This document shows, piece after piece, positions 3,891 to 52,398 of a stretch of 64,000 nucleotides of DNA. The notes beneath the pieces are model-generated. The model was not told where the DNA came from and ran no database searches. It worked only from the letters and a program-made list of their open reading frames with translations. A program made the position numbers and the translations under genes. Numbering within the stretch: position 1 is the first letter of the stretch; every line of letters starts with the position of its first letter. This DNA comes from Octopus vulgaris (lineage: Eukaryota). Where the stretch lies: NCBI GenBank assembly GCA_951406725.2, contig OX597817.1:37014001-37078000 (forward strand), written 5' to 3'.

Positions 3891-4266
3891 TTATATATAA
3901 AAAAAGAGACAGCTCATGCCGTCAAACACAAGAAATTCATTTATAATACACAACGGAGTCAGACATCTTAGAGTTCATGTATAGTTGATATATAGTTCAT
4001 GTATAGTTGATATATAGTTTGAAGTATATGTTCAAAGTGTTCGATGCAGTGGCCCACGGTGGCGATACGTATTCAATACAAAAAACAGATCAAAGTGGTG
4101 GAAAGCGGTCAATACAGAAGATTGATGTTTCCGAAAGAGCGAGGAATTCATTTTTACCTTAAGCAATTGTGATGACCCATGGTGGAAGTTCGCTGGGTGG
4201 TTCTAGTGATTTTTTGTGAAATGCTTGGTTTTATAATGCCTGTTAGGTGGTCAATCTAGCGTAGCG

Positions 4267-4601
4267 TGACGTCATCAATGTTTTGACCAATCGTTTCGTT
4301 AGGTGGCTTTAATCAAGTGGAACGGGACGTCATCATTATTTTGACCAATCGCTGCATTATAACTCCCTCTTGTTTGTTTCCTGTCTTGACCAGTCGCTTC
4401 GTTAGTCAAGCATAGCGGGATGTCATCCAGATTCTGCCCAATCACGACTTATAGCTACATTAGATCTGCCCCCTGTCTGTACTTGTTAGGTGACTATTCA
4501 AGCAGAAAAGGACGTCATCAATATTCTGACTAATGACTGTCCCCTGTTTGTATCCTGTCCATTCTAGCAGAGCTAGACGTCATCAACTTGTTGACCAATC
4601 A
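4267..4601. promoter_or_regulatory. Array of five CRE-like/CCAAT composite motifs (GACGTCATC-N7-TGACCAATC)
   Basis: Copies start at 4267, 4325, 4418, 4510 and 4575, each with a 7-nt spacer. Confidence 0.65.
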
Positions 4602-4768
4602 GAATCGGGTCTGACCCTTAGCTGTATCGTATGTATCAGGGTCAGATTTGCACGAAATAATTTTGTTCCCTTTTTTACTAAGGCATATTTCCGTCAGAGT
4701 GAGTGTCTGTTTGAAGTAGCGGCCGTGGTGAAATTTGGTTCTCCTTTTCGGAGGACTTATCTTTTGTT

Positions 4769-6678
4769 TTAGTATTCCTGGCCCAGGGTGTTTAAACTTG
4801 ATCTAAATTTTTTTATGAAATATAGTTCTTTATTTTGGCGTTGTGTGAAGGTTGCGTTGTCACTGAATTTATAGAGCGGGTTAGTTGTAAATTTCGGATT
4901 TACATTTCCAGCACATCTATCTATGTGTCCGCTGACCGGTATTTTGCGGTAATCAGGGTTTCTAATTTGTGATTTATGCACCGCCATCCTGTTACGTAAG
5001 CTATTTTTTGTATGGCCTATATACTGCCTATTGCAGCCTGCGCATGTTATGACGTAAATTAAGTTTTCTGATGCGCAGGTGAAGTTTGTTCTAATGGTGA
5101 ACTGGTGGCCTTGTTCCAGTATAAATTCTGATCCTTCTTTCAAGATGACACAGATTCCGCAGTTGGGCCTTCCACATTTTCTAACTGCTGGTTTTGTGGT
5201 TGATGTTGAGTGCAGTGTAGCTTGGGTTAAAATCCTTTTCAAGGATTTTGGTTGCCGTTTACTTTTAATGATGGTGTGTGTTTCGAGGATCCGGTTCATC
5301 TTTGGGTCTCCCTTTAGTAGGGCTGTGCTTTGTAGTATGGTGTTGAAGGCCTCATTGTTGAGTGGGTTGTGTGTAGAGATGTAGGGAAGGGTTTTTAATT
5401 GTTCTTTCTTTTTTGGTTTTGTTTGTCTCAGGTCTTCTATACTTAATTTAAGTACCCGTTGGATTGCACTGTCTATTAGGGGCTGTGGATAGTTTCTATT
5501 TGTGAGTGTGGTTCTAAGTTCCTGGAGACGTGTGTGTCGGGTGTTTGTGTCTGATGTTATGGTGCAAATCCTTCTAGCTAAACAAAAAGGGACATTCATT
5601 CTAGTGTGTCGTGGGTGGCATGAATCAAAGGGTAGGTACTGTTTAGAGTCTGTCGGTTTATAGTAGATATCTGTCTCTATTTTGTTGCCGGTTATCTTAA
5701 TGAGGATGTCTAAAAATGGTAATTCTTTTTCGTTGTGGTCCATCGTGAATTGTATATTGTCATTTATTCCATTTAATAGAATTTTAAATTCCTCAAGTTT
5801 CTCTATGCCTTTGTCCCAGATGATGAAACAGTCATCGAGGTATATTTTCCAGTTGTTATGGATATAGGTGGCGAAGGTGTTTCCATATTTCTCGAGTGTC
5901 ATCCGGTATAGTATTTTCTCGAGGTATCCCATCACTAGGTTGGCAAAAGATGGTGCAGTACGCGTGCCCATCGCTGTTCCCGATCTTTGCCTGTAGAAAT
6001 CATTGTCAAAAATAAAATAATTGTTCTCTAAAATGAATCTAAGTCCTTCTATTATAAGGTCTTTGTTTATGCGAGTTGGGAGTTCAAAGGGGTAGTTATT
6101 CAGCCAGAAGGTGATTGCTTCTATTCCTAGGTTGTGAGGGATGTTAGAATAAAGATTAACTACGTCGAATGATACTAGAAGGGTTTTCTCATTGACTGTT
6201 TTAGGGAGGTGGTTGAGCATATCTATATCGTCTCTTACGTAGCTTTTGATGTGTTTTAGGCAAGGTTTAAGAAGTGTGTCTAAGAAATTGCTGAGGCGGT
6301 GAGTTTCACATGCTGGCCCTGCTATTATCGGTCTTAGTTTAAGATCATTTGGTGAAGGGATTTTGATGAGTGTGTCGGTGGATGTTTTGCACGTTTCTCT
6401 AATGGTTTGGCTTTTGTGTACCTTAGGGATACCATAGAACAAACTCGATTTGCATTTGAAGTTAGTGATGTATTCATACTCCTTGTTCGTGAGTCCTTCT
6501 TGGTATGTGTTGATTAATGTCCTAAGGTTATGCATTATTTTTTGCTGGTTATACTGTTGGGCCCTTTCATAATACGTTTCATCTCTTAATAGGGATAGCA
6601 CTAAATTTTTATAATTGGTTGTATTCATTATTACTATCGCGTTGCCCTTATCTGCCTCCTTAATTGTTATTGTTTTGT

Positions 6679-6679
<1 letters not shown>
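4769..6679 (-). CDS. Penelope-like retroelement polyprotein (reverse transcriptase + C-terminal GIY-YIG endonuclease), 5'-truncated, Neptune-like
   Basis: 619-aa ORF from the Met at 6628. The frame stays open upstream to about 6679 and encodes IKEADKGNAIVIM. RT motifs: LRPII, SFDVVNLYSNIP, GTAMG, YLDD, LPFLDI, YYKPTD..YL....CHP. Linker CxxxxCxxC (CGRPNCGIC). Endonuclease NLIYVITCAGCNRQYIG with CxxC between the GIY and YIG motifs. Confidence 0.95.
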
Positions 6680-16881: not shown

Positions 16882-17165
16882 TAATAAAATAAAATAAAAT
16901 ACAAAATGAGACAAGAACACAAAACATCAGGAGAGCTAGATGATACAAAAAGGGACAATTAAACATCCAGATAGACGATACAAACAAACAAGGACGGGTC
17001 ATTCGAAGCCTTTTATCCTCAGTCAAGAACCGGATCATCCTCGCAATTTCGGCTAATTAATCTTGAGATTGCTCCAATCTGGCCAACCCCTAGGAAAAAC
17101 TAAGCTAAGAGTGTTAGATTCCTTAGAAAAAAGCATCGAATGTATACGAAAACAAGGACAAGAAT

Positions 17166-24020: not shown

Positions 24021-24064
24021 ACAGTCTGATGAGGGTGACCACACCGAAACTTCAAAGCCGCTGT
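24021..24064 (+). ncRNA. Type I hammerhead ribozyme remnant with a mutated cleavage triplet
   Basis: ACAGT-CTGATGA-g-GGTG(acca)CACC-GAA-ACTT(ca)AAG-CC-GCTGT; GCC in place of GUC. Confidence 0.7.
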
Positions 24065-24096
24065 CAGATATTTCATTGTACAAGTTTACATGTGTT

Positions 24097-29712: not shown

Positions 29713-29855
29713 CATTTTCATTTCCCGAGCGTTATACTAATATATCTGTTTGTTTTCTACACCACCTGACTTCGTCTTTTGTTGTTTTCGTGAATTCTCC
29801 CTCTATATATATATAATTATATATATATAGCTGAAATTAACAGAGAAACAACAGT

Positions 29856-29891
29856 CTTTTACGTTTCGAGCCTACGCTCTTCAATAGAAAA
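29856..29891 (-). ncRNA. Degenerate minimal type I hammerhead motif, same family as 29675-29712
   Basis: TTTT-CTATTGA-a-GAGC(gtag)GCTC-GAA-ACGT-A-AAAG. Confidence 0.6.
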
Positions 29892-30025
29892 TTGAATGTG
29901 AGAAAATAAGCAGAGAGAATAAAAATAATTGTGGATTTAGTGGTTGTCGCCAAAGGATATAAAATATGAATACATATACAATCATCCATATGAATACATA
30001 TACAATCATCCATATGAATATACAT

Positions 30026-30061
<36 letters not shown>

Positions 30062-30537
30062 TCGGGTTTAGGTCAGATCCGGAAAATCCTGCTATGGATG
30101 CGGATGCCATTGTAACCCAGTACTGCCTGTTTCATTGTCGCGTGGTTGGCGACTAAACTGGCTCCTTCAACCGGCTTGCCAAGCTGAGGAGGATATTGTG
30201 GACACTCTGCAGGACATAAAACAAGACATGCCAAAACAAAAAAACAGATGAGTTCAATATAAGCCAACGGTCGGCACGTAGTATGCTTTCAAGATGGTGT
30301 CGATGTCCGCGACTGATATAAGGTAGAGTGATAAATATGTTTGTACTTGTGTGTATTCTATATGAGTAGAAATACTGTACATTCTTCATATCATTTTTCT
30401 TTTCTTTTCGAACTAATGAATAGATAAACTATTTTGTAAGATTGAAAATATTCTCTCTCGTTTCTTCATTCAAAAGTATATTCATTATTTATCATTCTCG
30501 CTCAGTCTTTCGATCTGTTTATTCATTTCCCCCATTC

Positions 30538-49764: not shown

Positions 49765-50104
49765 ATGGGTACAGGGCACACAAAAAAAACTGGACAAAAT
49801 GAGATATGAGAACATAGAAAACAAAAACATAGAAAACGAACATTTTTTCCGAACAAGGAAAGAAACAAACAGAGAAACGAGACAGGCAACATAAAAAACA
49901 TTCCTTTCATCAGTTGTCCCCTGTTTTATCTACTCCGTGTTTCGAAGGTAGGGACAAGACACGACTTAATTACAACATTCCTTCTCGTAAAGCAAATTAA
50001 ATAAAATTAGGGATTTTTTGCGGAGGGTTAAAGTGGTGACAAAACAAGACAGTAAAAACAAACGGTAAGGGATGTTAAACCAAGACGAGGTGAAGTGGTG
50101 AATG
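49765..50104 (-). mobile_element. Short microsatellite-associated element carrying a permuted HHR
   Basis: Begins ATATATGGGTACAGG, as does the related terminus at about 59051-59160; a similar terminus lies in opposite orientation at about 1218-1315. Confidence 0.55.
49903..49963 (-). ncRNA. Non-circularly permuted hammerhead ribozyme candidate
   Basis: CGTGT-C-TTGTCCCT-a-CCTTC-GAA-ACACG-(about 14 nt)-GGGGACAA-CTGATGA-AAGG. Confidence 0.78.
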
Positions 50105-52117: not shown

Positions 52118-52150
52118 TATACATATAAACACGTACACACATACACACAT

Positions 52151-52365
52151 AGGAGGAACTACAACCGTGTTTCGTGGTCTGCTACCACAACAGCTCCTTT
52201 ATAGGATCCAGCTAGCTCAAGACATCATCAGGAGGAACCACGTCCAATTTCGTCCACTCCTCTACCATCTTGGTGTGGCGCCCCATCCTTTCGGAGGTGT
52301 CCAGCTCTACTCATGTCCTCTCTTCTCTCTCTCTGTTTCCTGGCCTCTTCGATGTATCGAGTGTC

Positions 52366-52366
<1 letters not shown>
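52151..52366 (-). mobile_element. Short microsatellite-flanked element carrying a permuted HHR
   Basis: GC-richer island between TA/CA tracts. Confidence 0.5.
52220..52267 (-). ncRNA. Non-circularly permuted hammerhead ribozyme candidate
   Basis: TGGT-A-GAGGAG-t-GGAC-GAA-ATTG-(7 nt)-TTCCTC-CTGATGA-t-GTCT; stem III is mostly G-U pairs. Confidence 0.6.

Positions 52367-52398
<32 letters not shown>

Follow-up and report, generated by a model that had tools for sequence, protein, structure and literature searches.

Core of a candidate hammerhead ribozyme with a divided stem II in a decayed octopus repeat, and related folds in Naiad Penelope-like elements

A combination of family consensus letters, metagenomic relatives and published element sequences was used to characterize the minus-strand motif at 52220-52267 of the window, by which we mean the whole 64,000-nt stretch of Octopus vulgaris DNA analysed here. 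The reading that we regard as quite probable is that these 48 nt are the core of a decayed hammerhead of about 95 nt, placed at the 3′ end of an abundant Naiad-type Penelope-like family; the carrier would be either an autonomous Naiad or a non-autonomous derivative. The copy in the window is a decayed member of a very high-copy dispersed repeat, and is most likely a dead insertion in which the core and stem I are intact and the pairing of stem II and most of stem III has been lost. In the predicted intact fold, about 95 nt long, stem II takes its partner strand from upstream, away from CUGAUGA. Judged from sequence comparison, this split-stem-II arrangement is probably an overlooked Naiad ribozyme and a permutation beyond the six orders of Eckert 2023 (PMC10085705). 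Any importance would lie with the family and not with the worn window copy.

The window copy and its repeat family

Re-reading of 52267-52220 on the minus strand returned the letters given in a preliminary description, which had called the motif a reversed-order hammerhead. This holds for block order and core: CUGANGA, GAAA and UH are in register, the triplet is GUA with A52263 as H17, the blocks run S-G-C (Table 1), and no majority change was seen at core positions in four runs. The pair table likewise agrees with the 6-bp stem I that had been claimed (five Watson–Crick pairs and one G-U) and with a cut predicted directly after 52263. With a descriptor open to all six block orders, two matches were obtained in the window, this motif and 49961-49904, both of them S-G-C; 100 block-wise dinucleotide shuffles gave 0.08 S-G-C matches per window at the loose setting, and none of the 100 gave a match when stems I, II and III were held to at least 6, 4 and 4 bp. 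The motif is not a canonical type I, II or III hammerhead, as it has neither the circular order C-G-S nor an Rfam match; searches of Rfam with the window, the locus and three metagenomic relatives (L003, L004 and L005, described below) gave only weak or microsatellite-driven hits.

Table 1. Coordinates of the features on the window (minus strand, read 5′ to 3′ from high to low positions)
Feature	Position	Strand	Basis or remark
Decayed repeat copy, about 215 nt, 52% GC, between TA-rich microsatellites	52151..52365	-	GC and contig placement
Family 3′ end	52151-52155	-	unrelated AT-rich loose ends
P1 5′ strand, GACA, pairing with the strand after A9	52298..52301	-	4/4 Watson–Crick; same in L003 and L005
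P2 hairpin, set between P1 and the partner strand of stem II; arm of the putative four-way junction	52284..52297	-	4/5 pairs
P3 5′ strand, the detached 10.x strand of stem II, damaged	52280..52283	-	2/4 pairs
P4 5′ strand, of the helix linking the far ends of stems I and II	52272..52278	-	5/7 pairs
Block S: 52267-52264 for stem III, A52263 as H17, 52262-52257 for stem I; cut predicted at 52263/52262	52257..52267	-	
Block G: stem II strand 52255-52252, G12-A13-A14-A15.1 52251-52248, stem III strand 52248-52245	52245..52255	-	
P4 3′ strand (the 7-nt linker of the preliminary description)	52238..52244	-	pair probability 0.82-0.91 in L005
Block C lacking its stem II strand: 52237-52232 for stem I, CUGAUGA at 52231-52225	52225..52237	-	no majority change listed in four runs
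P1 3′ strand, UGUC, earlier taken as stem II	52221..52224	-	pair table
3′ tail: CUGUUGU, hairpin 52188-52174, GAAAC; hammerhead-like, core not intact in the family	52169..52193	-	
Second split-stem-II motif, unrelated helix sequences, another family	17010..17111	-	full descriptor fits
Third S-G-C motif, plain 4-bp stem II possible	49904..49984	-	in a degenerate tandem repeat of about 79 nt

The copy stands out by its GC content, 0.52 inside against 0.16 and 0.12 in the flanks, in a window that is AT-rich and microsatellite-rich, as in animal genomes. Its 5′ boundary at 52365 was placed solely by reading the sequence; the 3′ end of the family was set at 52151-52155 because unrelated AT-rich loose ends begin there. 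At 80% likeness, 1890, 696 and 1376 contigs from three DNA runs, together with 387 of the 12.9 million reads of an RNA run, were placed on 52135-52368. The runs come from three organisms, possibly related species, and each shares at most 30% of the stretch's words, so the placed contigs and reads portray the family and not the window locus. A search of the 64-kb window for a further copy of the family found none. TA-rich flanks and AT-rich, unrelated 3′ junctions agree with dispersed, 5′-truncated copies inserted into (TA)n, a pattern that is not specific to Naiads. As for the partial tandem (pLTR) arrangement, the window holds a single short copy, and joints occur only as isolated cases in placed reads and contigs. 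Subfamilies with a common ribozyme domain and another 3′ tail from about 52202 (52188-52202) were seen in the runs of at least two organisms.

Family letters bear directly on the weakest part of the motif. The preliminary description had ranked it as the weakest of three such motifs because of the G-U pairs in stem III, and the copy indeed has one Watson–Crick and three G-U pairs there. When family consensus letters were consulted, as had been proposed, position 52247 was found changed in all 179 RNA reads and in 94-99.7% of contig depth, 52246 in 173 of 179 reads and 59-97% of depth, and 52267 in 63 of 68 reads. These majority letters replace the three G-U pairs, and all four pairs of stem III are therefore Watson–Crick in the family.

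Stem II and the linkers as first drawn did not survive the same comparison. The 4-bp stem II (three Watson–Crick pairs and one G-U after one extra U) requires A at 52253; on the RNA strand the family has C instead, in 105 of 129 reads and 91-99% of contig depth, and the loose ends carry three extra letters between stem I and GAAA. It follows that the compact stem II and the 1-nt I-II linker are private to the window copy, whose block G strand of stem II has suffered a 3-nt deletion, the source of the short linker, and a C-to-A change. The supposed 7-nt III-I linker belongs to a conserved helix, P4, of which it forms one strand: at positions 52273 and 52274 alike, 60 of 68 reads have letters that pair, and with these 52278-52272 is fully complementary to it. 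Nor is the fold confined to 48 nt, since the conserved part extends upstream to 52301. In P2, 55 of 68 reads pair at 52285, the mismatched position of the window copy, and loose ends of the family display a strand complementary to the 5′ strand of P3. A CUGAAGA in family reads at about 52301 was considered as a second core and rejected, being the complementary strand of a P1 extension.

Folded alone by a nested prediction, the window copy does not adopt the hammerhead, and its stem III shows zero predicted pairing. Duplex energies are +2.4 kcal/mol for stem III and +2.5 for P3, compared with -1.8 to -2.1 and -9.2 to -12.5, respectively, in L003 and L005. The descriptor for the split fold does not fit the copy. 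It is probably inactive, and we would give detectable cleavage only a small chance. These values also weigh on a simpler reading, in which the 48 nt are a self-contained plain SGC hammerhead with an ordinary stem II and the window copy is active. All core letters are present, a 4-bp stem II can be drawn, and natural stems II may begin with a mismatch or an extra base (PMC3088659 and PMC4209133, in the parts available); that stem II nevertheless depends on a letter private to this copy, stem III is unstable, and with one extra base allowed only one consecutive pair of direct stem II can be formed in L003 and in L005, and none in the motif at 17 kb. A weak direct stem II is possible in the window lineage (a U-C mismatch, then G-C, U-G and C-G) and is not possible in the Naiads Plae and Amil or in the 17-kb motif. 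The self-contained reading is thus put forward as highly improbable.

At least 68 placed RNA reads span the predicted cut. No site at which many molecules start or end was seen in the RNA run (X23), which tells little, as the library is fragmented and derives mostly from old copies.

Downstream of the core, a second, decayed hammerhead had been suspected around a hairpin. The hairpin itself, GUGGU/ACCAC at 52188-52174 followed by GAAAC, is present; the hammerhead is not supported. The core position reads CUGUUGU family-wide with no variant listed at 52190, A occurs at 52187 in just 1-6%, and L003 retains the hairpin region with no GAAA after it. Given the family core and the L003 sequence, the hairpin more plausibly belongs to the 3′ tail, possibly as the remnant of an ancient hammerhead.

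Relatives with an intact predicted fold

To place the motif outside this family, a 21-letter pattern was searched and matched five metagenome contigs, of which L003, L004 and L005 are homologous and two (L001 and L002) are chance matches. Identity is 74-79% over 56-127 nt. L003 and L004 have 107 nt in common and then diverge in the style of a dispersed repeat, with fragments of Ras and PWWP in their flanks. Stem I has 6 pairs and stem III 4 in both L003 and L005, which are independent, eukaryote-like contigs; the remaining helices count P3 6/6, P1 4, P2 5/5 and P4 8/9 in L003, and P3 5/5, P1 4, P2 5/5 and P4 7/7 in L005. P1 is longer in relatives and has other letters, and all four pairs of stem III are Watson–Crick, with compensatory changes relative to the window family. 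Pair counts were not drawn from the three-sequence MAFFT alignment, which misplaces the deletion of the window copy.

In both L003 and L005 the strand before GAAA pairs upstream, forming P3, and the strand after A9 pairs elsewhere upstream, forming P1. The P2 hairpin sits between the P1 and P3 strands with no spare base, and P4 ties P3 and stem I together at their far ends. The helix under G12 that starts with G-C11.1 is supplied by P3 in L003, in L005 and in the 17-kb motif, and A9 would be held by a four-way junction of P1 and P2. The latter motif belongs to another family and has unrelated helix sequences; with stem I 6/6, stem III 5/5, six pairs in P3, five in P2, 5/6 in P1 and 8/9 in P4 it is better preserved than the motif at 52220-52267, and in P4 it is similar to the published octopus Naiads.

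The full descriptor of this fold fits 2 of 40 loci, L003 and L005 (L004 is cut off), against 0.01 per shuffled window. IMG/VR gave no matches with the long pattern and 24 with the short one, and GTDB gave 11; the descriptor fits 0 of the 11 prokaryote and 0 of the 24 viral matches. Because none of them forms the fold, these 35 matches serve, together with L001 and L002, as negative controls.

By nested folding, L003 prefers P1, P2 and P3 over P4 and stem III, and L005 prefers P1, P4 and stem III over P3, in a method that cannot score the pseudoknotted state. The joint between P4 and stem III has zero linker on one strand in the family, in L005 and in Naiad_Plae, and is hard to fit to the known three-dimensional fold within one molecule; the accessible text of Eckert 2023 reports the same difficulty for a direct joint (PMC10085705). 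Since this joint is hard to place in a monomer, the same ribozyme might act only as a dimer or in trans, with P4 and stem III as a rod whose foot strands find their pairing partner in the head loop of a second copy, as in tandem pLTRs. L005 does fold into such a rod (probabilities 0.82-0.92), and many metazoan Penelope hammerheads need two copies (PMC4209133, in the part available). On the other side, natural SGC ribozymes, some with a direct joint of the P4-III type, and CSG ribozymes were reported to cleave co-transcriptionally as single constructs (PMC10085705, accessible text), and stem III is here a stable helix, unlike the short palindrome of dimer-type motifs. We consider obligatory dimer or trans action unlikely, though less so than the self-contained 48-nt hammerhead.

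As a separate observation, a ubiquitin C-terminal hydrolase frame on L005 (361-936, minus strand) runs directly into the ribozyme motif, an arrangement to be explained by insertion at the end of a gene or by a mobile element that bears the protease.

Naiad elements, known permutations and a proposed mechanism

Naiads were described by Craig 2021 as lacking a canonical hammerhead and as targeting (TA)n; eight carry an 'HHR_half_core' with GAAA 35-50 nt away on either side (PMC8557442, in the parts available). Their success without hammerheads has been used there to argue that ribozymes may merely parasitize such elements. The half cores resemble the window family in their 3′ UTR position, the 35-50 nt between GAAA and CUGANGA and the (TA)n target; its authors, in contrast to the present reading, drew no fold, and left several fitting elements, Plae, Amil and Obim among them, unflagged.

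The Craig 2021 consensus file was compared by eye, a comparison that covered unbroken CUGANGA matches and several 3′ ends and carries no covariation statistic. The motifs of the window family matched the 3′ UTR of Naiad_Plae just past the stop codon. Stems I and II of Naiad_Plae are letter-identical to those of the window family, blocks S and G share 25 of 26 letters with the family letters, and P1, P2 and P4 form 5, 8 and 8 Watson–Crick pairs despite wholly different letters. At least 10 of the 54 consensus sequences end in the split fold, with differing sequences, 36 others having been read only in part: one Clytia element, Amil, Aacu, Anas, Movir-2, Plae, EuTe, Obim, Ovul and a worn Esco. 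Their hosts include a hydrozoan, three Acropora, a box jelly, a clam shrimp, two octopuses and a squid, although independent cases are fewer than entries, as the three Acropora are near-identical and so are the two Octopus. Bfor also fits, with a stem I of just 2 bp. CUGANGA matches in ostracod, spider and crab Naiads did not fit the fold when compared by eye. Within the fitting motifs G is absent from H17, where A, C or U occurs; N7 is variable, as is the base that follows A9 (U, C or A), and at position 11.1 a C forms a pair with an upstream G (U in the squid consensus Esco).

Seven nematode Naiads (one Pristionchus element, Nbra-1 to -3, Hcon, Hpol and probably Asuum) have, again by eye, a plain C-S-G hammerhead that includes a I-II helix. 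These nematode motifs are clean and have a long stem III (PMC8557442 File S5). Taken together, it seems likely that Naiads of ctenophores, cnidarians, an acanthocephalan, nematodes, crustaceans and cephalopods carry a working hammerhead that is always non-circularly permuted, C-S-G in nematodes and the four-piece split-stem-II form elsewhere.

The spread of the fold also bears on whether it is catalytic. A structured 3′ end signal for the reverse transcriptase that merely looks like a hammerhead would agree with RNA reads that lack a cleavage signal and with the break in the direct link from A9 to stem II, which the accessible text of Eckert 2023 treats as essential and took as unbreakable (PMC10085705). 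It would not account for CUGANGA, GAAA and UH in exact register with stems I and III over several phyla while all helices change, for variation at N7 and H17 that obeys hammerhead rules, or for the unbroken CSG form in nematode Naiads, a type reported in the same text to cleave. A non-catalytic signal accordingly strikes us as very unlikely.

Rather more weight, while still on the doubtful side, is given to a carrier other than a Naiad, namely a retrozyme-like or SINE-like repeat or another retroelement that captured the ribozyme module. A Naiad frame is marked by an N-terminal GIY-YIG, a CxC motif and a C-terminal reverse transcriptase with a DKA motif. No reverse transcriptase or other coding sequence has been seen joined to the window family, the window copy being short and without a coding part, and the 44-aa frame upstream of it has no Pfam match. 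Subfamilies exchange 3′ tails at about 52202, the ubiquitin-hydrolase frame precedes the motif in L005, the published octopus Naiads carry the fold in letters other than those of the window family, and animal retrozymes have been argued to be non-autonomous Penelope derivatives (bioRxiv 2026.07.22.740005, accessible part). Against this stand blocks S and G, which nearly match those of Naiad_Plae, and insertion at TA repeats as in Naiads. Such a carrier would change the element that bears the ribozyme and not the ribozyme.

Among known systems, S-G-C is a non-circular permutation known from metatranscriptomes: the accessible text of Eckert 2023 lists 583 type-SGC and 2 type-CSG sequences, both of the latter from metagenomes and none of the total from the genome of a known organism (PMC10085705). 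Type-SGC ribozymes (HRIMA-1 and variants) share with the window family the S-G-C order, the core letters, a short I-II linker and an extra helix on the other sides of stems I and II that is sometimes joined directly to stem III; from its connectivity, P4 would be the equivalent of Eckert's I-II helix. In type-SGC, by contrast, CUGANGA runs on directly into its stem II strand, whereas in the window family that strand lies upstream and P1 follows A9 in a four-way junction. For this reason the window motif is classed as a variant of type-SGC and not as a member, and the motifs of the window family were not found in the text of the Eckert 2023 supplement, figures apart. The seven nematode motifs have the order of type-CSG and its I-II helix; relative to that type the window motif is a circular permutation, but with block C split. 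Penelope hammerheads (PMC4209133, accessible part) resemble the window family in a core near the 3′ end of the element, in high-copy dispersal and in the proposed role in RNA processing; they differ in having C-G-S order, a three-way junction and a short palindromic stem III, against a pseudoknotted fold with a stable stem III here.

The preferred reading, a split-stem-II hammerhead of Naiad type, suggests the following mechanism. The proposed order, 5′ to 3′, is P1a, P2 hairpin, stem II partner, P4a, block S with the cut, block G, P4b, the stem I strand with CUGAUGA, and P1b. If the ends of a type-SGC ribozyme with a I-II helix were joined and the ring reopened between A9 and G10.1, the window order would result, and reopening the same ring before the I-II helix would give the nematode form, as far as connectivity in the accessible text of PMC10085705 indicates. 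The conserved G-C11.1 pair would be retained with its G supplied from upstream, and P1 and P2 would clamp A9 and close the new gap in a four-way junction with stem II and the core G-A pairs. The intact RNA would cut after NUH and so free unit-length element RNA from tandem or read-through transcripts, leaving a 5′-OH and a 2′,3′-cyclic phosphate kept together by the surrounding helices. Ends held in this way may be ligated and copied by the reverse transcriptase of the element, with circles as possible templates, by analogy with PMC4209133 (accessible part). The family 3′ end lies 110 nt past the predicted cut, a distance compatible with uncut or re-joined RNA as the template.

Permuted hammerheads are described neither for Naiads nor for animal genomes in the literature searched, in which subscription journals are thinly covered; the accessible parts of bioRxiv 2026.07.22.740005, a 2026 viral ribozyme paper, a fungal genome paper and a 2025 review mention none in animals or Naiads. 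If the reading is correct, these would be the first non-circularly permuted ribozymes found in an animal genome, with copies numbering many thousands, and would move permuted ribozymes from unassigned metatranscriptome contigs into animal genomes. Their architecture would lie outside the six orders thought possible, CUGANGA would, contrary to assumption, not need to run straight into stem II, and the question of how Naiads, reported as hammerhead-less, relate to ribozymes would be answered. Because standard descriptors and Rfam miss the fold, invertebrate ribozyme counts may be far too low.

Other motifs and elements in the window

Two other element remains in the window are not linked to the motif. 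An uninterrupted 636-aa Penelope-like frame at 4772-6679 (minus strand), truncated 5′ at a TA repeat, encodes a reverse transcriptase and then GIY-YIG; with the endonuclease at its C end it does not have the Naiad order, and in its 3′ region (4200-4640) several short repeats and no hammerhead core were found. The other is a set of LINE-like fragments at 53.8-54.8 kb.

No intact canonical type I hammerhead was returned by a strict scan of the 64-kb window. Canonical-order cores with CUGAUGA or UUGAAGA, a hairpin and GAAA were observed at 24026-24075 (plus strand), 1435-1390 (minus) and 29850-29895 (minus); they fail the strict scan and are probably worn minimal hammerheads of other Penelope-like families.

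The region 49840-49990 (minus strand), around the third S-G-C motif of Table 1, offers a stem I of 8 bp and a stem III of 6 bp, and 1 of 500 shuffles scores as high. The split-stem-II descriptor fits 49984-49904 loosely, and the motif could be a plain SGC, a CSG across repeat units or a split-stem-II form. Finally, a CUGAGGA at 30130-30200 (plus strand) is preceded by a stretch like a decayed G block, and is possibly a fourth reversed-order remnant.
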